Notes under the pieces: generated by a model
Database searches by the model: none
Told to the model about the DNA's origin: nothing
The model's input: the letters and a program-made list of their open reading frames with translations, nothing else
Part shown: in pieces, positions 1,586-13,297 of the stretch
Position numbering within the stretch: position 1 is the first letter of the stretch
How the letters are laid out: every line of letters begins with the position of its first letter
Position numbers and translations under genes: made by a program
Virus record (IMG/VR): IMGVR_UViG_3300020048_006428
Span: 119,178 to 183,177 of that record
Length of the DNA: 64,000 nucleotides
Direction: 5' to 3' (one strand)
Source: a virus
Taxonomy: Duplodnaviria > Heunggongvirae > Uroviricota > Caudoviricetes

Positions 1586-2382
1586 AATACTTAAGATTAT
1601 TTGAACAATTTGAAATAGAAAAGGGTGATATTTTAAATCATCCATATCGTACACTAAATGATGTAACAGAAGATATAAAATATTTAGCACAAATATTTAG
1701 AAATCATTATATTGGTTCTTCATTTCGGGATAAAGAAGAAATTGAACTAAGACTTATCCAAAATTTAGAAAAAAGAAATTTTTCTCCATCAATAGCCAAT
1801 GCTTACCCATCATTCATAAAAATAGAAGAAATATTAAATAAAGAAATTGAATCTATTAGAAAAAAAGGTGGTTCAAGTGAATCCGAAACAAATGAATATT
1901 TAAAATTCTATAATGATTTTGCTGAACTCGTTCATATGGCACTTACGAAAAACATTAATGAAAATTATAGTATAAAGAATTATACATATAATGATTATAA
2001 ATATATTGTAAAATACAATGGTGATCATCTATACATAGAATTGCCTAATATTGGCTTTGTAGAGGGTTATAAGATGCCAATCGAACTTGATATTGCAGAA
2101 GATTTATCAAGTGATGAAATAGAAGAATTGGGTATAATTGATCCATATTTCACAATAAAACACATTGAAGTGTATGATAAAAGAAAAGGATATGGAAATG
2201 AACTTATGTCAGTTTTTTTAGACATAACAAATAAACTTGGATTAAATCAAATAATCTTAAATGCTTCTCCATTAGATAGAAATATAGATTTAGAAGGTTT
2301 AGTTGCCTTTTATGAAGATTGGGGATTTGAAGTTATAAAAAAATATAAAGATCATTCTATAATGATGCTAAATAGACTATGA
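1582..2382 (+). CDS. GNAT-family acetyltransferase with MKYLRLFE N-terminal tag
   Basis: C-terminal HIEVYDKRKGYGNELM (acetyl-CoA-binding motif A) and LVAFYEDWGFEV (motif B). Confidence 0.7.
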   Translation: MKYLRLFEQFEIEKGDILNHPYRTLNDVTEDIKYLAQIFRNHYIGSSFRDKEEIELRLIQNLEKRNFSPSIANAYPSFIKIEEILNKEIESIRKKGGSSESETNEYLKFYNDFAELVHMALTKNINENYSIKNYTYNDYKYIVKYNGDHLYIELPNIGFVEGYKMPIELDIAEDLSSDEIEELGIIDPYFTIKHIEVYDKRKGYGNELMSVFLDITNKLGLNQIILNASPLDRNIDLEGLVAFYEDWGFEVIKKYKDHSIMMLNRL

Positions 2383-4160
2383 AATATTTAATAAAATACA
2401 AAAACTATAAACTATTGGAATCGGTAATTGTTTCAAGTGATGATTTTAAGAGTATTATTACTAAATTACCAGACGAAAAAATATCAAATTATATTTATGA
2501 TATAATTAAATATGATACTGATGTTAATACAAAATATAACTATCTTAACTTATCAGATAAAAATGATGAAGTAGAATTTCTACCTGATAATCAATTCCAA
2601 AGATTCCTAAATGATGGTAGTTATGAAACAAGAAAAAGAAGTAACATAAATGTTGGTAGACTTGTATCACAAATTTTAAAGGATAATAATATAGACTTTA
2701 CTGAAACTGAATTGGTTACTTTTATAAATAATTTTAAAGCATTTCACAGTAAAATGAAAAATGTTGATATATCAATCGTTAAAGGAAATGATATATTGAA
2801 ATGGTATTTGATTGATAATTATATAGATTCAAATAATGGGACATTAAATAATTCTTGTATGGCAGATACAAAGAAAAATCATTTTATGAAAATCTATGCT
2901 GATAATCCAAATAAAATATCAATGGTTATAATTAAAGAAGATGATGGATTGGTTGCAAGAGCTTTATTATGGAAAATAGATGAATCTAATTACTATTTAG
3001 ATAGAATATATTATACAGATGGTTCACAACAAAGATTTATTCATAGTTGGGTATTAGAAAATATAGTAAATAATGGCAAAGATAAATTATTAAGTCATCT
3101 TGAATTTGATAATACACGTGGTGATATATCTATTCAATTAGACAAAATAAATTATGATTTTTATCCATATATGGATAGTTTTCCGTTTTTATATGAAAAA
3201 TTGGAAGATGGTGAACAAACAGGAAATGGATATGTTGCAAATTATAATCTATTAGATGATGGGAAGAATTATGATGATTATATGATATCCAGAATTCGAT
3301 CAAGTTCAACTGGTGAAAGAGAATGGTTAACCCATATATATTCAAAATTACTTGAAAAATGGTTTCCTAAAAATGAAGTTGTAGTAGTTATAACTAAAAA
3401 AGATAATAAACTTGATTATTTTGCAGTTCCTAAAAGTATGGCTTTTTATTCTAATTTAGAAGATTCTTATATACTCCAAACAGATGCTGTTTATTCAAAT
3501 ATATTATCTGACTATTTATCTGAATATAAATCTATATCACATCCAAAATATGGTGTTATACCAAAAGACAGTATTGTCAAAGCAAACACTAAATATATTG
3601 GGAAATATACTAACCCACTTGAAATATATAATGCACTTAAAAATGGTGAAGAGTTATATGAAATTGATGATGTTTTTGATCCGAATGGAAATGAAGTTAC
3701 TTTTGTATATGATACACCTAATAATGTGTTAGAATTATTTAAAAATGATTTACTTGTAGAAGATTATTTGGGGTATAAGAATATCGAAAAGATATGTGTT
3801 AAATTATTTAAAATAAATGGTGATTTGATGGAAACTTGTTTTGATAACAATTACATATTCTTTAAATATGGCGAAAAGTTGGGAAGATTTGAAAAAGATT
3901 TCTGGGCATACATTATGGAAGAAGATTGTATATTATTTAATAAAAATGAAATTGATTCAAATTACTACAAAACTGTTCCAATAGATTCTAGTCTAATAAT
4001 GGATAGACTTATTCATAATTTTGATATTAATAGTGTAATAGAATTTATAAATAATTCAAATATATCAGAATCTGAAAAACAAAAATTAATTGAAAGCAAA
4101 AATAAATATCATAATGAATTATTGAAAAACCAAGTTTATAAAAATAGAGTGAAAAAGTGA
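2379..4160 (+). CDS. Hypothetical 593-aa protein with N-terminal tag; possible PcfJ-like domain
   Basis: Long ORF; NSCM...YADNP...ARALLW...LDRIY core; three imperfect YSxxxxxY/W repeats. Confidence 0.55.
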   Translation: MKYLIKYKNYKLLESVIVSSDDFKSIITKLPDEKISNYIYDIIKYDTDVNTKYNYLNLSDKNDEVEFLPDNQFQRFLNDGSYETRKRSNINVGRLVSQILKDNNIDFTETELVTFINNFKAFHSKMKNVDISIVKGNDILKWYLIDNYIDSNNGTLNNSCMADTKKNHFMKIYADNPNKISMVIIKEDDGLVARALLWKIDESNYYLDRIYYTDGSQQRFIHSWVLENIVNNGKDKLLSHLEFDNTRGDISIQLDKINYDFYPYMDSFPFLYEKLEDGEQTGNGYVANYNLLDDGKNYDDYMISRIRSSSTGEREWLTHIYSKLLEKWFPKNEVVVVITKKDNKLDYFAVPKSMAFYSNLEDSYILQTDAVYSNILSDYLSEYKSISHPKYGVIPKDSIVKANTKYIGKYTNPLEIYNALKNGEELYEIDDVFDPNGNEVTFVYDTPNNVLELFKNDLLVEDYLGYKNIEKICVKLFKINGDLMETCFDNNYIFFKYGEKLGRFEKDFWAYIMEEDCILFNKNEIDSNYYKTVPIDSSLIMDRLIHNFDINSVIEFINNSNISESEKQKLIESKNKYHNELLKNQVYKNRVKK

Positions 4161-4170
4161 AAATAAAATA

Positions 4171-4202
4171 AAAACACATTATAATTTATAATGTGTTTTT
4201 TT
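4171..4202. terminator. Intrinsic terminator hairpin
   Basis: AAAACACATTATA-ATT-TATAATGTGTTTTT after the stop at 4160. Confidence 0.75.
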
Positions 4203-4254
4203 AATTAAACTAAAATAGATATATCATATATAATTAAAAAATAATTAATATAAA

Positions 4255-4980
4255 ATGACCATATCTTTAGAAAAGGTATTTTTTACATTTATTTTAAAAA
4301 ATAAAAGGCACTTCGGTATAGTAGAACCAATTTTTTTCAAAAATGCAGAAATACAATTAGTATATAATATACTTAGAAAATATATACTTAAAAATTCAGA
4401 AGCAGAAGTTCCACAACCAAGACAAATTCTTGAAATGGTGTCGCTTGAAGATAAAGAATCTTTAATTACAAAAGATATTCTAAAAGCAATGCTAACAGTT
4501 AATCTTAGTGAGTATGATGAAACTAATTTTATAATACCAAAATTTAATGCTTGGATATTATCTAATAGATTAAAAGCAGGCACTATTGATATAATAGATG
4601 AAACCAGAAATCTTGACACTAAAACAGACTTTGATTCAATATTAGAATCTGCTAATAAGATTAAAAATATTGTAGATCAAATGGCAAATATAAACTTTGC
4701 TGATGATGACGATCTTGGTGCAGATTTTGATGACCCAGAACAACACGCACAAGATTCTTCTAAATTTAAAATAAAATCAGGATTTGCTACTATTGATCAT
4801 ATGCTTGGTGGTGGTTGGGATATATCAACTTTAAACATTCTGATGGCTGAAACGTCCAACGGAAAATGTTTTTCAGGATTGATAAGGGTTTCAGAAGATT
4901 CTGAAAAAACAGAAACAATAAAAATAGAAGATTTTTTCAATAGAATTAAAAATATGTCTAAGGCGGTGAAAAAGAAATAA
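4255..4980 (+). CDS. dnaB: Replicative helicase (gp41/DnaB-like), N-terminal half, fused to the 37-aa N-part of a split intein
   Basis: SGFATIDHMLGGGW...LNILMAETSNGK is a Walker A that stops at Lys and is followed by intein Cys1 (TGT at 4867-4869), CFSGLIRV...KKK*. Confidence 0.85.
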   Translation: MTISLEKVFFTFILKNKRHFGIVEPIFFKNAEIQLVYNILRKYILKNSEAEVPQPRQILEMVSLEDKESLITKDILKAMLTVNLSEYDETNFIIPKFNAWILSNRLKAGTIDIIDETRNLDTKTDFDSILESANKIKNIVDQMANINFADDDDLGADFDDPEQHAQDSSKFKIKSGFATIDHMLGGGWDISTLNILMAETSNGKCFSGLIRVSEDSEKTETIKIEDFFNRIKNMSKAVKKK

Positions 4981-5002
4981 TATATAAAAATAAACAGCCA
5001 AT

Positions 5003-6448
5003 ATGAATAATTTATGGACAGATAAGGAAATTGATTTATTAACTAATAATTATATGTCTATGACATATAAAGAAATAGCTAATTTATTAAATAGAAGTGA
5101 AACATCAATTGAAAGAAAATTAAGTAGATTAGGATTATCCAAAAAAGCAACTGATGATTATACATATTGGGATGCTGAAAAATTGACATATTTAGTTAAA
5201 AATTATAATGATTATTCTTGTAAAGAATTAGGTGAAAAATTAGGATTTTCAGAAAAGAAAATTATAAAAAAACTATCTGATTTAAAATTAAAGAAGGTCG
5301 TTATCAGAAAAAAAGTTGAAAAATCAGAACATAAACATATAAACACAGGAGATATATGTTGTAAGGTTTGTAATAATGGATTTAAGAATTTAAAGGGACT
5401 TGAAATACATTTAACTAAAAAGCATAAAGAAGTAGATGTAGAAGCTTATTACTTAGAAAATATTGGTAGTGTGGTAGTCTGTAGAATATGTGATGAAGAT
5501 GGTAGGTTTTTATCACTAACTAATGGATTTAGGGACTTGTGTAAAAAGGAAGAATGTATTAAAAAATCATATGAAAGTGGTTCAATAGATTTTTGGATAA
5601 ACAAAGGTTATAATGAGAATGATGCAAAAATAAGATTTCAAGAATATACTACAAAAAGAGTTGAAAGTCTATTAAAAGGTGATGAAGAAAGATTAAAAGG
5701 AAATCCAAATTATTATAAGGAAAAATCACATAATACAAAACAATATTGGGTTAAGAAAGGTTTATCAAATAGTGATTCTATGATAAAATCAAATGATGTT
5801 ATGAAAATGATTTCATCAAAATCTTCAATTATATTTAAAAATAATCCAGAAAAATATGCATCTAAATATCCAACTAAAATTGAATATTATTTACATAGGG
5901 GTTTTACAGAAGAACAAGGTAGGGAAATGATTTCTGAAAGACAGAAGACATTTACATTAGAAAAGTTAATTGAAAGATATGGTGAAGAAGAAGCTAATAA
6001 AGTATATAATAGTCGCCAAGAAAAGTGGTTAAAATCATTACATAGCAACGGAAAATTGAAAGGTGGTTATTCATTAGTTTCACAAGAATTATTTAAAAAA
6101 ATAGATGAATATTATATAGATAATAATTTTCAATATATGTTAAAGAATGGCGAATTTGTGATTTCTAAATATTGTGTTGATTTTATTGACCATGATACAA
6201 ATAGAATAATAGAATTTAATGGTGATGTTTACCATGCCAATCCTAATATATTTAAGTTTGATGATACACCAAATCCATGGAATAAGAAATTGTTATCAGA
6301 ACAGATATGGGAAAGTGATAGGATTAGGAATGAATTAATAGAATCGTTAGGATATAAAGTTTTTGTTGTTTGGGAATTGGAATATAGAAAAAATACAAAA
6401 CAAACAGTAGAAAAATGTATAGAATTTTTAGATAAAAATAAGATTTAA
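5003..6448 (+). mobile_element. Free-standing homing-endonuclease-like gene (Vsr/PD-(D/E)XK-like C-terminus) between the split-intein halves
   Basis: N-terminal HTH-like repeats (WTDKEIDLL / WDAEKLTYL), C2H2-like CKVC...HLTKKH, C-terminal VDF...IIEFNGDVYHANP...LGYKVFVVWE. Confidence 0.75.
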
Positions 6449-6449
6449 A

Positions 6450-7613
6450 ATGTTAGAATTAGAATATATTGAAGCGGATAGTTTATTTGATGGGGTTTAT
6501 GAAGCACCATTATATGATAAATTTATTGAGGCTTATAGGGTTAATAATATTAAGGTTGAGACACCTAATGGATTGGTAGATGTAGAAGGTGTTGGAAAAA
6601 CCATTGAATTTGAAGAATATAGGATATTTACATCAGGGGGTAAAGAATTGATATGTGCTGATAAGCATATATTATATCGTTGTGATAATATGGATTTCGT
6701 TACATTAAAATGTGATTTAAATGAGATTTATTGTGAATATTTACAATTAGGTGATTTCATTATGACTAAGGATGGACCAGAAATGGTAATGGAATATGGA
6801 TTAACAGGTAATAAATCACATATGTATGATTTACAATTATCAGAAGGTTCAAATAAGCAATATTACACAAATGATATATTGAGTCATAATTCTTTATGGA
6901 TGCAGAATTTCGCTGTAAAATCTGCTGATATGGGTTATAATGTATTATATATAACTTTGGAAATGAGTGAAAAGAAAGTTATGAAGAGATTGGGTTCTAT
7001 GCGTTTAAAGATACCAATAAATGAATATGATAATTTGAGTAAGGATGTAGACTATATAAAAGCAAAAATTGATACATTAAAAAATTCAAATTCAAATGAT
7101 TTATTTGAAAAGAAGATTGGTAAAATAATAGCTAAATTTTGGGCTGCTGGAACTGCAACTGTAAATGATTTTGATAATTACATACAGAAACTAAAAGATA
7201 AAAAAGGTATAAAAATAGATTTTGTTATAGTTGATTATATAACTTTGATAGCACCAATAAAAGGAATGGCGGGTGGTGATAATCTATATTCAAAAGGAAA
7301 AGCTTTAGCAGAGGGATTAAGAGCAATTGGTGCTAAATACAAGATTCCTGTATTAACTGCAATTCAAGTTGCAAGGGATGCTTGGAATTCAACCCAAATA
7401 ACTTTATCATCTATACCTGAAAGCAAAGCCATTGCCGAAACTGCGGATACATTTTGGGCTATAATAAGGACAGAAGATATGAAAAGACAGAATATATATA
7501 GATTTAAAATGCTAAAACAAAGAGATGGTGACTTTTCGAGTTCCCAGATAAAATTGAATTTAAATCCTTTATATCTAACATTAGAAAATGATATATTCAT
7601 TGACCAAGAATAA
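6450..7613 (+). CDS. dnaB: Split-intein C-part (147 aa) fused to the helicase C-terminal half
   Basis: Intein block B (LICADKHIL), block F (MYDLQL) and G (DILSHN, ending at 6890), then Ser+1; SLWMQN...YITLEMSE...VIVDYITL...TAIQV...ESKAIAETAD...KQRDG are DnaB-family motifs. Confidence 0.9.
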   Translation: MLELEYIEADSLFDGVYEAPLYDKFIEAYRVNNIKVETPNGLVDVEGVGKTIEFEEYRIFTSGGKELICADKHILYRCDNMDFVTLKCDLNEIYCEYLQLGDFIMTKDGPEMVMEYGLTGNKSHMYDLQLSEGSNKQYYTNDILSHNSLWMQNFAVKSADMGYNVLYITLEMSEKKVMKRLGSMRLKIPINEYDNLSKDVDYIKAKIDTLKNSNSNDLFEKKIGKIIAKFWAAGTATVNDFDNYIQKLKDKKGIKIDFVIVDYITLIAPIKGMAGGDNLYSKGKALAEGLRAIGAKYKIPVLTAIQVARDAWNSTQITLSSIPESKAIAETADTFWAIIRTEDMKRQNIYRFKMLKQRDGDFSSSQIKLNLNPLYLTLENDIFIDQE

Positions 7614-8920
7614 TAATTTATTTAGGATATCATCATCATATGATATCCTAAATAATAAAATATTATTATCTTCACAAAATTTATTTTTTATTGAATCTCT
7701 AAATATAGTTTTTTGGAATTCAACTTCACCACCAAATACATCAATTGGTTTGTAATGTTGAATTCCATCATATTCAATACAAATTTTATTATCATATAAA
7801 TAAAAATCAAAAGGTAGTTTTCTTATATTCTTACATTCATCAAATTTATATTGTGATTCAAAACTTATATTATTTGATATAAGAAATTCAGATATTATTT
7901 TTTCACCTTTTGAAAATCTGCATTTTGGACAACCTTGTTTACAGTGAAAATGTGAATATATTGACTGTTTAAAAAAACCATGTTTATTACAAATAATTCT
8001 CACTTTATTCTTTATTGTTTTAAAATCATTTTTTGTGTGTGAATAATCATAATTTATATTTATATTTTTTAATTCATTTATAGCACTATCTATATCAAAA
8101 TTTGAGCATTTATAACAACCCGAACCATTTAAATGTGATTTTGCATTTTGCCAAAAATCGCCATGTATAGGACAGTTTATTTTAAGTTTATTAGATGTTC
8201 CTTTATAAGTGGATTCATAATATGAATACTTATTTTTAAATATATTATTACATTTATTTAAAAATTCATTATAATTTAATTTAATTTTATCAAAATGACA
8301 TTTTTTACACCCACTTCTCAAATGATTTTTCACACTTTGCTTAAATATATTATGGGTTGGACATTTTATTTCAAGTATTGATTTTGTGTCTTCAATAGAA
8401 TCAATATTAATATATTCAAAAAAATTATTATATTTAATATTAATTTTTTCTATTATTTGCTTCTTTGATAATTTTTTCTTATCATCAGCGCACTTTTTAC
8501 ATGAAATTCCCGTGTATGCAAAATTTGATATATTAGATTTGAATTCACCATGAACTGGACAAATAACAACTATTTTTGATCTTGTGTGAAATTCTTCTAT
8601 TTTTGATAAGTCATAAAATCCATTATATTTATCATTTATCATTCCAATGACTTTTTCCTTTTGTATATTATTTCTTATTTCATCATTACAACATTTTAGA
8701 CCATATATAATAGAATTAGCAGGTGATGTTTTTATATCACCGTGTTTTAAACATTTAAAACACGTTTTGGTCTTATTATTTATATAAATGAAGTTACTAA
8801 AATCTACTATATTTCCCCATTTAGAAATAAAATTATTAATAAAAATTTCCTTGTTTTCCATATATTTTATATGAAAAACAACAGTTATGTTTAAACTTTA
8901 ACATTAGAAAATGATATATT
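7576..8920. repeat. 22-bp direct repeat flanking the endonuclease insertion (duplicated helicase 3' end)
   Basis: TAACATTAGAAAATGATATATT at 7576-7597 and 8899-8920. Confidence 0.85.
7581..8861 (-). mobile_element. Free-standing homing-endonuclease-like gene (repeated YDYS/CPxHG Zn modules + PD-(D/E)XK-like nuclease)
   Basis: Repeated CPxHG.F and GCxxC modules; C-terminal LPFDFYL...CIEYDGIQHY...LFRISY; antisense to and overlapping the helicase 3' end. Confidence 0.75.
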
Positions 8921-8952
8921 TATGGATGCAATATAAAAAAAAAACAATAAAA

Positions 8953-9837
8953 ATGGAATTAAATAAAGAAGAAGAAGAATTCATTGAAAATAATGAAGTT
9001 GAAAATGAAGTTGATGAATCAGTTGATTCTTTTGATGATGATTCAACTGACTTTACAGATGAAGTAATTGAAATTGATGAAGAAGATTTGAAATTTGATA
9101 TTAAGTCTGAAACATCAGATGCTGTATTATCTAAGCACACAATACAAGGAAAACATAGTTTAAAATATGATTCTATTTTCAAAGGAAAAAAGGAAGATCC
9201 ATTAAGTGAAGAAAATGCCGAATATACAAGTGGATATAATGAAACATTTGAGGTTGATAAATCTTCACATCATTGGTATGAATCGGTTGATAATGAAAAT
9301 TATATAAAGGAAAAAAGGATTAAAGAAAGAGTATATGCTGTTTTATCCAATGAAACAGATATTAATTTTTTAAATAATAGACGAAAGCCATCAAGAGTTG
9401 ACTTTAATAGATATTATCAATTATTGAAGATTAATTTAAATGAGGATGGATTTACAAACATTGAATTATTTAATGAGTTAGCAGTTTATTTTTCTGATAA
9501 TTTGTTTAATATGTTTAAACTATTGGACAACAAATGGAGAAATCTTATAATATTTGAATTACAAGAACATATAGGAAAGCAGAATTATTCTGATGAAATA
9601 ATGAATAGGAATATATATGAAGGAACTGAAATAGAATTTATAGAAGATGATTTTATAAAAGATGAAATAATACATATAACTGGTGTAGTTATTGAAACGG
9701 ATTATGATAATAATTTATATAAAGTTAATTCATATGAAAAAATATATGAGGTGGAGCTTTGTAATATAACGAAAATATTAAATAATACTAAATTTAAGTA
9801 CAATTTGAATAAACTTAACAATATAGATTTTCTATAA
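8953..9837 (+). CDS. Hypothetical protein with acidic N-terminus
   Basis: The track start at 8911 falls inside the duplicated helicase end; the in-frame ATG at 8953 (MELNKEEEE) is more plausible. Confidence 0.6.
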   Translation: MELNKEEEEFIENNEVENEVDESVDSFDDDSTDFTDEVIEIDEEDLKFDIKSETSDAVLSKHTIQGKHSLKYDSIFKGKKEDPLSEENAEYTSGYNETFEVDKSSHHWYESVDNENYIKEKRIKERVYAVLSNETDINFLNNRRKPSRVDFNRYYQLLKINLNEDGFTNIELFNELAVYFSDNLFNMFKLLDNKWRNLIIFELQEHIGKQNYSDEIMNRNIYEGTEIEFIEDDFIKDEIIHITGVVIETDYDNNLYKVNSYEKIYEVELCNITKILNNTKFKYNLNKLNNIDFL

Positions 9838-10909: not shown

Positions 10910-13297
10910 ATGTCTTTAAAAATTTTAAAAAGAAGTGGGGAAGAAACTTCATTTAATCCAACAAAAATACACAATAGAATTAAGAAAACTTCTAAGGGGT
11001 TGAATGTAAAATCAGATGAAATATTTATAAAAGTTATAACTTCTGTTCCAACAGAAGGTGTTATATCCACTAAACAATTGGATAAATTAATATCTGAAAT
11101 TGCAGCAGCTTATACAGGAGATCACCATGATTATTCAAAATTTTCTGCAAATGTAGCTGTTTCATCTTATCACAAAGAAACAAAAGAAAGTTTTTGTGAT
11201 ACTATGATTGAATTACACAAATTAAATATTGTCCATGATAAGCTAATAGATATTATAAATGAATATGGTAAAGAAAATATAGACAATATTATAAAACATA
11301 ATAATGATTATAATTTTGATTATTTTGCTTGGCGTACTTTATTAGAAATGTATCTTTTAAAAACTAACGAAGGTGTTACTATTGAAAGACCACAACATAT
11401 GTTTATGAGAATTGCTTTGTGGGTAACTGATTCATTTGATGATGCAGTTGATTATTACAATTCTTTATCAACACAATTGATATCAAAAGCAACACCAATT
11501 ATGATAAATTCGGGTACTAAGATACCACAATTGGCTTCTTGTGTTTTACATTATAATGATGGTGATTCGAGAGAAGGATTATTAAATACATTTCATGATA
11601 TTGCATCTTATTCTGCTGATGCAGCGGGTATTGGATTGTGTATGACTAACATAAGATCAAAGGAAAGTAGACTAAGTTCGTCAGGTGGTTTTTCAGGTGG
11701 TCTTTTGAAATATCTTAAAATCGTAAATGAAGGCTTGCGTTTTTTCAATCAACAAGGAAGAAGACCAGGTTCAGCAGCTATTTATATTGAACCTTGGCAC
11801 AAAGACTTATTGGATTTATTAGATATTAAAAAGAATACGGGAAAAGATGAAATGAGGGCTAGAGATTTATTCACTGCTTTATGGATACCTGATAACTTTA
11901 TGAATGCAGTTATGAATGATGAAGATTGGTATTTATTTTGTCCAAATGATATAATAAAGGCTGGTATTAAGCCATTACAAGAAACATATGGTGATGAATA
12001 TGAAGCGAATTATAAAAAAGCTATTGAATTAGGTATAGGTAAGAAAATAAAAGCACAAGAAGTTTGGAATAAAATAATTGAATCTCAAATTGAAACAGGT
12101 GTTCCATATTTATGTTCCAAAGATAGTGCAAATAGAAAGACAAATCATCAAAATATTGGTGTTATTAAGCAATCAAATTTATGTGCTGAAATTTTTCAAT
12201 ATACAGATGAAGAAACAACTGCAATATGTACTTTATCTTCGGTTATATTGAAAAATTACATAAAAGATGGTAAATTTGATTTTGATTTATTGATAAGTGA
12301 AACTAAGAAAATAGTAAGATCTTTAAATAAAGTAATTGATATTAATAATTATTCAAGCAGGAAAGGTAAGAAAGGTGGATTAGAGCAGAGATCAATTGCA
12401 ATTGGAACACAAGGTTTAGCAGATGTTTTTTTCCTTTTAGATTATGTTTTTGGATCAAATGATGCAATTGAATTAAATAAAAAAATATTTGAAACAATAT
12501 ATTTTGCTTCCATAACAGAAAGTATGAATCTTTGTAAAAGTGGTAAATATAAACCATACGATTTCTATGAAGGATCACCAATGTCAGAAGGTATTTTTCA
12601 ATTTGATATGTGGGGAATTGATAATAGCGAATTACATTATGATTGGAATGAATTAAAAGAAGAAGTTAAAAAATATGGTGTTTGTAATTCATTATTAACA
12701 GCACAAATGCCCGTAGCCGGTTCGGCAAAAATTTCTGGATCGTATGAAATGACTGAACCAGCACATTCTGCAATTTTTACAAGACGTGTTATTGGTGGTG
12801 AAATAATCATAGTAAATAAATATTTGATTAATGATTTTGAAAAATTAGGTATATGGAGTGAAGATTTCAAAAATGAAATAATTATGAATGATGGTTCTAT
12901 ACAAAATATAAATTTCAATAATTATTTAGATATAGAAGACAAAAAATATAATTTTAAAGTAAAAAGAATTGAACATTTAATACAGAAATATAGAACAATT
13001 TGGGAAATAAAACAAAGGGAATTAATTGATATGGCAGCAGATAGAGCACCATTCATTGATCAGTCACAATCAATGAATATCTATATGGATAGTCCTACTT
13101 TATCTAAAATTTCATCAGCACATTTTCATAGTTGGAGTAAGGGCTTAAAAACACTTTGTTATTATGTAAGAACAAGAGCAATTTCAACAGGTGCAAAACA
13201 CTTAGCAATTGATTTATCAAAAAGTGAACTTAAACCAGGGAATATACCAACTAAACCAGATGATTCCCCATTTGATTGTTTTGGTTGTTCATCTTAA
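10910..13297 (+). CDS. nrdA: Ribonucleotide reductase class Ia alpha subunit with ATP cone
   Basis: N-terminal ATP cone, ERPQH, QLASC, SNLCAE, DQSQSMN, LCYYVR and C-terminal CFGC. Confidence 0.97.
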   Translation: MSLKILKRSGEETSFNPTKIHNRIKKTSKGLNVKSDEIFIKVITSVPTEGVISTKQLDKLISEIAAAYTGDHHDYSKFSANVAVSSYHKETKESFCDTMIELHKLNIVHDKLIDIINEYGKENIDNIIKHNNDYNFDYFAWRTLLEMYLLKTNEGVTIERPQHMFMRIALWVTDSFDDAVDYYNSLSTQLISKATPIMINSGTKIPQLASCVLHYNDGDSREGLLNTFHDIASYSADAAGIGLCMTNIRSKESRLSSSGGFSGGLLKYLKIVNEGLRFFNQQGRRPGSAAIYIEPWHKDLLDLLDIKKNTGKDEMRARDLFTALWIPDNFMNAVMNDEDWYLFCPNDIIKAGIKPLQETYGDEYEANYKKAIELGIGKKIKAQEVWNKIIESQIETGVPYLCSKDSANRKTNHQNIGVIKQSNLCAEIFQYTDEETTAICTLSSVILKNYIKDGKFDFDLLISETKKIVRSLNKVIDINNYSSRKGKKGGLEQRSIAIGTQGLADVFFLLDYVFGSNDAIELNKKIFETIYFASITESMNLCKSGKYKPYDFYEGSPMSEGIFQFDMWGIDNSELHYDWNELKEEVKKYGVCNSLLTAQMPVAGSAKISGSYEMTEPAHSAIFTRRVIGGEIIIVNKYLINDFEKLGIWSEDFKNEIIMNDGSIQNINFNNYLDIEDKKYNFKVKRIEHLIQKYRTIWEIKQRELIDMAADRAPFIDQSQSMNIYMDSPTLSKISSAHFHSWSKGLKTLCYYVRTRAISTGAKHLAIDLSKSELKPGNIPTKPDDSPFDCFGCSS

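Follow-up and report, generated by a model that had tools for sequence, protein, structure and literature searches.

The stretch of DNA analysed here (the window) comprises 64,000 nucleotides (nt) of the Caudoviricetes virus record IMGVR_UViG_3300020048_006428, positions 119,178 to 183,177, and carries a helicase gene whose two halves are separated by the pieces of a split intein and an endonuclease gene. Window positions 4255-7613 are filled by three plus-strand open reading frames (ORFs) of 241, 481 and 387 amino acids (aa), and the features encoded by them are listed in Table 1. The N-terminal helicase ORF (N ORF, 4255-4980) reads ...NILMAETSNGK and then continues with 37 intein residues, the N-terminal intein fragment (IntN, 4867-4977), up to a stop codon at 4978-4980. 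The codons GGA AAA TGT at 4861-4869 give Gly-Lys-Cys, with the codon of the first intein residue, Cys1, at 4867-4869 (Cys205 of the N ORF). The stop closing the IntN is TAA, so that it would end translation even under a genetic code in which TAG or TGA is recoded. The endonuclease ORF starts 22 bases past this stop, and the C-terminal helicase ORF (C ORF) begins at 6450, one base beyond the stop of the endonuclease ORF. The C-terminal intein fragment (IntC) encoded at its start ends with ...DILSHN and is followed directly by SLWMQNFAV..., the codons AGT CAT AAT TCT at 6882-6893 giving Ser-His-Asn-Ser with Ser+1 at 6891. A preliminary description of this DNA had the P-loop AETSNGK/S broken after Lys, a 37-aa IntN at 4867-4977 ending in a stop, and an IntC of 147 aa running from 6450 to a His-Asn end at 6890, followed by Ser+1. 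The sequence confirms the coordinates of both fragments, and the break after Lys is borne out by the codons at 4861-4869 and by the break in the helicase profile match described below. No terminator-like sites were found on the plus strand between the three ORFs, which fits their co-transcription. Among the public runs listed as containing this stretch, none is of RNA.

Table 1. Features of the fractured helicase locus, the adjacent endonuclease gene and the fractured terminase of the same genome (window positions except for the last line)
Feature	Position	Strand	Basis or remark
N-extein, helicase residues 1-204, Walker A end ...AETSNGK	4255..4866	+	phrog_19; collinear with 444-aa intein-less orthologues
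IntN, 37 aa, Cys1-Lys37, plus TAA stop	4867..4980	+	Sequence
Predicted free-standing homing endonuclease gene, 481 aa	5003..6448	+	Pfam, PHROG, weak Vsr alignment
IntC, 147 aa, C-terminal Ser-His-Asn	6450..6890	+	CatC similarity, invariant residues, fold of contiguous allele
C-extein, Ser+1 plus 239 residues of DnaB-type ATPase domain, stop	6891..7613	+	Pfam DnaB_C, phrog_19
Second endonuclease gene, 426 aa	7581-8861	-	DUF723, DUF559-like; phrog_559 HNH endonuclease
Fractured large terminase, same genome, outside the window (locus L004)	G000:C1:63402-66716	-	Walker A ...RQIGK/C

The outer two ORFs match consecutive parts of one helicase. In the PHROG DnaB-like helicase profile phrog_19, residues 22-204 of the N ORF correspond to profile positions 184-366 and residues 148-374 of the C ORF to positions 367-574, with neither gap nor overlap between the two matches, placing the break exactly at the extein junction Lys204/Ser148. 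The Pfam family DnaB_C matches C ORF residues 154-368 with an E value of 4.9e-16. Two uncultured phage genomes of ~640 kb, LR745206 and LR756502, align with both helicase halves (70-73% nucleotide identity) and lack the part between them, and each contains an uninterrupted 444-aa helicase ORF that reads AETN(G/N)GK-SLWMQNFA over the junction. The spliced product foreseen in the preliminary description, 444 aa (204 + 240), equals these intein-less orthologues in length, and splicing would therefore restore the orthologue precisely. Contigs of two independent aquatic or marine DNA studies join positions 4823/4829 directly to 6887/6893, and one environmental contig spells T-N-G-G-K-S-L-W-M-Q at the intein-less joint. 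These direct joints indicate that intein-free alleles of related phages are present in environmental DNA runs that also contain sequence matching the locus.

By its Cys1, its block B His, its His-Asn/Ser+1 terminus and its predicted fold, the element between the helicase halves is assigned to the class 1 inteins (HINT domain). The best relative of the IntC among solved structures is CatC (6dsl_B), with an E value of 9.4e-6 when the single sequence is used and of 6e-8 with the family profile and an identity of only about 25%, followed by gp41-1 and VidaL. This significant IntC similarity places the intein in the AceL-TerL/GOS-TerL/Cat lineage. The family profile of the IntN gave nothing meaningful against PDB sequences, not even CatN, the peptide being too short. 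Cys1 is invariant in 44 aligned IntN sequences and is, with Phe24, the sole invariant intein residue of this fragment. Block B of the window's IntC is I68-C69-A70-D71-K72-H73 (ICADKH) with an invariant His73, block F is SHMYDL, and the C-terminus is H146-N147-S148, where S148 is Ser+1. Across 41 relatives the invariant positions are I-C-A-D-x-H in block B, S-x-M-Y-D including the Asp in block F, the terminal His-Asn, and Ser+1. An AlphaFold model of P0018:195-385, a relative in which the intein is contiguous, has a predicted local distance difference test (pLDDT) of 84-96 across the IntC core. When this model was compared with the PDB using Foldseek, VidaL came first, the top 21 matches were all inteins (among them gp41-1, Aes123 PolB1 and Cat), and all 42 matches at E <= 0.001 were inteins or related HINT domains (BIL, hedgehog).

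The split of the window's intein has a naturally atypical layout, in which a short IntN of 37 aa ends at a stop and a long IntC of 147 aa opens the next helicase ORF; the canonical gp41-1-type division has an IntN of ~90-130 aa and an IntC of ~35-50 aa. The IntN length given in the preliminary description stands, although only about 27 core residues match the contiguous allele and the last 10 (KNMSKAVKKK) are a split-specific basic tail with a net charge of +5. The IntC opens with an acidic head of ~20 aa, net charge -6, which precedes the HINT core. Over the family the median charge is +3 for IntN and -15 for IntC, the window's IntC having -16 overall. The two contiguous alleles are joined differently, P0018 keeping the IntC-head sequence and lacking the IntN tail, and P0083 keeping the IntN tail and lacking part of the head. 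From this difference, tail and head behave as a dispensable linker around an IntN core of about 27 residues. By comparison with the contiguous alleles, the break lies ~27 residues into the intein, where the fold model has no confident secondary structure, and the alignment with CatC begins ~30 residues into the window's IntC. The endonuclease gene would have been inserted ~27 codons into the intein, probably just after the first helix.

To model the complex of the two fragments, IntN with 10 extein residues was paired with IntC with 10 extein residues, alongside three controls. The interface score ipSAE was 0.69 for the IntN-IntC pair and 0.02 for the best of the three controls; in calibration, 58 of 80 solved complexes and 2 of 110 mismatched pairs attained the mark applied to this score. 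The runs had a contact agreement of at least 76% and a partner pLDDT of at least 64. In the model, the strand carrying Cys1 lies against blocks B, F and G, IntN residues 20-31 touch IntC, and the contacts of lowest error are those of Phe24. A related complex, Cat 6dsl, has been solved, so the high score may in part reflect that known structure, and it speaks for likeness and not for binding.

The 481-aa protein encoded between the helicase halves contains sigma-70 region 4-like helix-turn-helix (HTH) modules and a C2H2 zinc finger, and its C-terminal region resembles Vsr/DUF559 nucleases. The Pfam match to DUF559 scores 21.6 bits, barely above the cut-off of 20.6, and MTES_1575 remains under its cut-off; Sigma70_r4_2 and zf-C2H2 are matched as well, as are the PHROG families phrog_22677 and phrog_323. 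Residues 393-477 align weakly with Escherichia coli Vsr (E 0.2 against the PDB), and the protein contains an ...EFNGDVYH... motif. With the modest support of the DUF559 match, it is predicted to belong to the Vsr-like family known from fractured genes (PMC2677866), to which the preliminary description had also referred for fractured gp41 genes.

The split layout is widely conserved. At 90% identity, 438 protein clusters contain the IntC-helicase arrangement and 393 the helicase-IntN arrangement, on contigs of up to 770 kb, and the recurrence of the 241-aa/~387-aa ORF pair in this many clusters is far beyond chance. Among the 120 relatives listed of the 438, IntC identity is 73-90% and nearly all proteins are 385-393 aa long, most of the 393 N-half relatives have exactly 241 aa, and the 37-aa length of the IntN is kept in most of 118 relatives. 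The ratio of nonsynonymous to synonymous substitutions (dN/dS, Nei-Gojobori) is 0.04-0.13 for the IntC, the same as for the exteins, as a rough figure given that dS is saturated.

Five allelic states of the locus occur in nature. In the first there is no intein (LR745206, LR756502 and environmental contigs), and in the second a contiguous mini-intein of ~170 aa lies in a single ORF of 612 or 616 aa (P0018 and P0083). P0083 was seen in both ENA and JGI data; for this allele and for the near-identical relative P0271, gene tables were used. The third state, found in the window, in its 73.6-kb near-twin and in L007-L009, combines the split with an endonuclease of full size (391 or 481 aa). In the fourth (L010) the split is accompanied by an 80-aa endonuclease remnant, and in the fifth (L011, L012) by a 117-nt spacer that retains only the final ~35 codons of the endonuclease. 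With ~170 aa within the P-loop, the second state can give an active helicase only if the intein splices. In the fourth and fifth states the split has outlived the nuclease, which argues that trans-splicing works. The series from empty site through contiguous mini-intein and split with endonuclease to split with decayed endonuclease is an unusually complete natural record of a homing cycle.

In the explanation that we strongly favour, the gene pair encodes a replicative helicase of the DnaB/gp41 type. The phage would be aquatic, very large and AT-rich, with the 'Mahaphage' genomes of ~640 kb as relatives, and the protein would be made from two genes by trans-splicing of an atypically split intein, with a selfish nuclease gene lying between them. 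A free-standing Vsr/DUF559-like gene would have inserted into the coding sequence of the intein, leaving the 37-aa IntN on the N half and the 147-aa IntC on the C half. The three genes would be transcribed together, and the basic IntN would dock on the strongly acidic, largely pre-formed IntC with the invariant Phe24 as its anchor. The reassembled HINT domain would then trans-splice by the standard class 1 route, comprising Cys1 thioester formation, attack by Ser+1 and Asn cyclisation, to yield a helicase of 444 aa in which the GKS P-loop is intact. The endonuclease would be a selfish passenger that spreads the cassette; in some relatives it has degenerated or disappeared, and these still retain the split. 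Trans-splicing itself we infer from the conservation and the modelled complex. The element is real and very probably functional, and adds one more case to a kind that is already known and common.

Four observations weigh against this explanation. Block B has Ala in place of the Thr of most inteins; this Ala is invariant in the 41 relatives and likewise occurs in the terminase intein of the same genome (CADNH). In the P0018 model the N-terminal ~55 residues are of low confidence, with pLDDT below 50 at residues 1-16, 26-35 and 43-55, the fold having been built from an alignment without IntN rows, and the position of the split relative to the first helix is for this reason inferred rather than seen. 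The IntN evolves near-neutrally (dN/dS 0.3-1.05), as a decaying sequence might, a reading countered by the retained IntN length, Cys1 and Phe24. Finally, the virus record is only about 47% complete and leaves room for a second helicase.

The alternative that retains most weight, although we regard it as unlikely, is that the halves assemble non-covalently and that the intein pieces serve as an interaction module without splicing, as for the fragmented NrdA of phage Aeh1. A fragmented phage enzyme held together by interaction domains that stem from a mobile element is indeed reported (PMC3045599), and the modelled IntN-IntC complex depicts docking and not chemistry. Such assembly would, however, leave the Gly-Lys and the Ser of the Walker A motif on separate chains, and docking alone would not need all of the catalytic residues (Cys1, block B His, His-Asn and Ser+1) to be invariant in 41-44 relatives. 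The contiguous alleles, with ~170 aa in the P-loop, also need splicing. Less probable still is that the helicase gene is a non-functional relic under destruction by selfish elements while another helicase, of phage or host, does the work. The presence of two endonuclease genes in or beside the helicase gene would favour a relic, and the incomplete record is compatible with a helicase encoded elsewhere; against this, purifying selection on the exteins and the IntC is strong, none of the three ORFs is disrupted, hundreds of diverged phages preserve the split layout, and no second DnaB_C match was found by Pfam in the 276-kb virus record. Splicing of the intervening 1.5 kb out of the RNA, as an intron that harbours the endonuclease gene, was the outcome that the preliminary description had named as contradicting it and can practically be dismissed: Vsr-like endonucleases are also found within group I introns (PMC2677866), but no Rfam family matches positions 4000-8000 at E <= 1, the flanks encode complete intein blocks so that a precise removal would still leave the intein, and relatives without the endonuclease retain two separate ORFs.

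If trans-splicing of the split intein does take place, a clade of the largest known phages would make its only detected replicative helicase by this reaction. Short-IntN split inteins are sought for protein semisynthesis, and the present family offers an IntN with a core of ~27 aa, Cys1/Ser+1 chemistry and many natural variants. The helicase intein leaves the understanding of how such elements work unchanged.

Of the two fragments of the intein, the IntN evolves much the faster. In most relatives it is about 25-35% identical to that of the window, compared with the 73-90% of the IntC given above. Between L010 (3051-4008) and L011 (3170-4000) the exteins and the IntC are identical, whereas the IntN is clearly different and the endonuclease remnants also differ, which suggests recombination or homing limited to the segment of IntN and endonuclease. 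A 4.4-kb environmental contig differs from the window's exteins at 23 and 13 bases over about 870 and 1,050, and the same contig diverges from the window across the IntN, the endonuclease and the IntC head. These comparisons, together with the restriction of invariant IntN residues to Cys1 and Phe24, raise the tentative possibility, to which we give well under even chances, that one conserved IntC may accept many very different IntN peptides and that IntN, endonuclease and IntC head may recombine between phages as one cassette. Were this the case, the homing endonuclease would drag half an intein along with it, and the phages would hold a natural library of interchangeable short IntN tags (~27-aa core) for one Cys1/Ser+1 IntC.

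A full HMMER scan of 1.84 billion representative sequences identified 546 clusters (50% identity) related to the window's IntC at E <= 0.001. The IntC match is near-complete in 138 of them, and in 118 of these 138 it begins within the first 45 protein residues, corresponding to the short-IntN layout. The rarity that the preliminary description had ascribed to short-IntN inteins therefore applies to characterised inteins but not to metagenomes, where they are common. The exteins of the 138 clusters are terminases (82), helicases (32) and others (24), making helicases the second commonest host behind terminases, and Pfam matches for 96 clusters add ClpX-like AAA, ABC and clamp-loader ATPases as hosts. 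A quick IQ-TREE tree was built from 127 columns and its forks, many of them unresolved, were rated by SH-aLRT; in it the window's IntC belongs to a nine-member helicase clade with 100% support. This clade is nested in a 29-row group of weak support, made up of 28 of the 32 helicase-borne inteins and a single terminase-borne one. Most terminase-borne inteins fall outside the group, and the terminase intein of the same genome is placed among the terminase-borne ones. Host labels cluster on the tree, with 6 changes compared with a mean of 28.9 after shuffling.

The fractured large terminase gene of the same genome (L004, Table 1) has the same layout as the helicase gene, with insertion at the Walker A site, a short IntN, a related endonuclease and an IntC ending in SHN. 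Its IntN has 53 aa, and the residue following its IntC is Thr (SHN/T). Its endonuclease has 332 aa, and the C-terminal region of ~200 aa is 45% identical to the endonuclease of the helicase locus over 202 residues. Between the IntC fragments of terminase and helicase the identity is only 31%. The possibility that the helicase intein is a recent copy of the terminase intein was considered and rejected on the basis of this identity and of the separate places of the two in the tree.

The second endonuclease gene of the window (Table 1) overlaps the 3' end of the helicase gene. It is bracketed by direct repeats at 7576-7616 and 8899-8939 (41 nt, 80% identical) and is absent from the 73.6-kb near-twin and from environmental contigs, which have joints at 7575->8899 and 7611->8936. 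Upstream of the helicase gene, the ORFs at 2379-4160 and 357-2382 (593, 266, 215 and 194 aa) match no Pfam family and have marginal PHROG matches only; the same four ORFs stand upstream of the helicase in the 73.6-kb relative. Related megaphages contain further intein signals (L010-L012 at ~7295-9170, L008 at 1-639). One of these is a truncated NrdA ORF of 398 aa followed by small ORFs with Intein_splicing matches, possibly a fractured ribonucleotide reductase, and another is a ResIII helicase with Hint/PT-HINT matches. The NrdA gene of the window (10910-13297, 795 aa) looks intact.

In the literature searched, the coverage of which is incomplete so that this absence is weak, no helicase-borne intein with a short IntN was found to be described; inteins are not mentioned in the huge-phage paper PMC7162821 or in one Lak paper (PMC8346664). 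Fractured genes that combine split inteins with free-standing GIY-YIG or Vsr-like endonucleases have been known since 2009 (Dassa et al., PMC2677866). The loci of that study, from the GOS metagenome, are gp41-1 to gp41-9, NrdA, NrdJ, IMPDH, DnaE, ligase and terminase (PMC2677866), in agreement with the preliminary description, according to which fractured gp41 loci with canonical long-IntN splits were already known. The helicase locus has the make-up of these fractured genes, as do L007, L008, L009 and the 73.6-kb relative: a phage replication gene lies in two adjacent ORFs of the same strand that carry the split-intein pieces, with the endonuclease gene between them. The likeness extends to the oppositely charged intein halves and to the lack of an endonuclease in gp41-7, as in L011 and L012. 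However, the fracture of gp41-1 to gp41-7 falls where cyanophage P-SSM2 gp41 has residue 356, and their inteins are divided canonically into a long IntN and a short IntC, whereas the fracture in the window lies in the Walker A motif with a 37/147 division, and the HTH and C2H2 modules of the window's endonuclease go beyond those of the endonucleases of Dassa et al.

The characterised natural short-IntN inteins are AceL-TerL, GOS-TerL, VidaL and PolB16, with IntN fragments of 15-37 aa (PMC13014065, PMC11766414, PMC10189870). VidaL (6vgv) and PolB16 OarG (8cpn) have IntN fragments of 16 and 15 aa, their split following strand beta2 immediately at the 'S1' position (PMC13014065). They share the short IntN and long IntC with the window's intein, whose IntN in contrast has a core of about 27 residues that probably takes in the helix segment, and PolB16 has Ser1/Ser+1 where the window's intein has Cys1/Ser+1. 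The IntN of GOS-TerL has 37 aa and is reducible to 27, that of AceL-TerL has 25 aa (PMC11766414), and both inteins are split after the first helix, the 'S2' position (PMC13014065). GOS-TerL, AceL-TerL and Cat resemble the window's intein most closely, as the group that contains its nearest solved relative and in their short IntN, class 1 chemistry and insertion after the P-loop Lys. They differ in having Cys+1 instead of Ser+1 and an IntC of 104-115 aa instead of 147 aa, the window's IntC possessing in addition the ~20-aa acidic N-terminal head and an internal insertion. The host of the Cat lineage is the large terminase, whereas the host in the window is a DnaB_C helicase, and in the quick tree the helicase-borne members mostly cluster apart from the terminase-borne relatives of this lineage.

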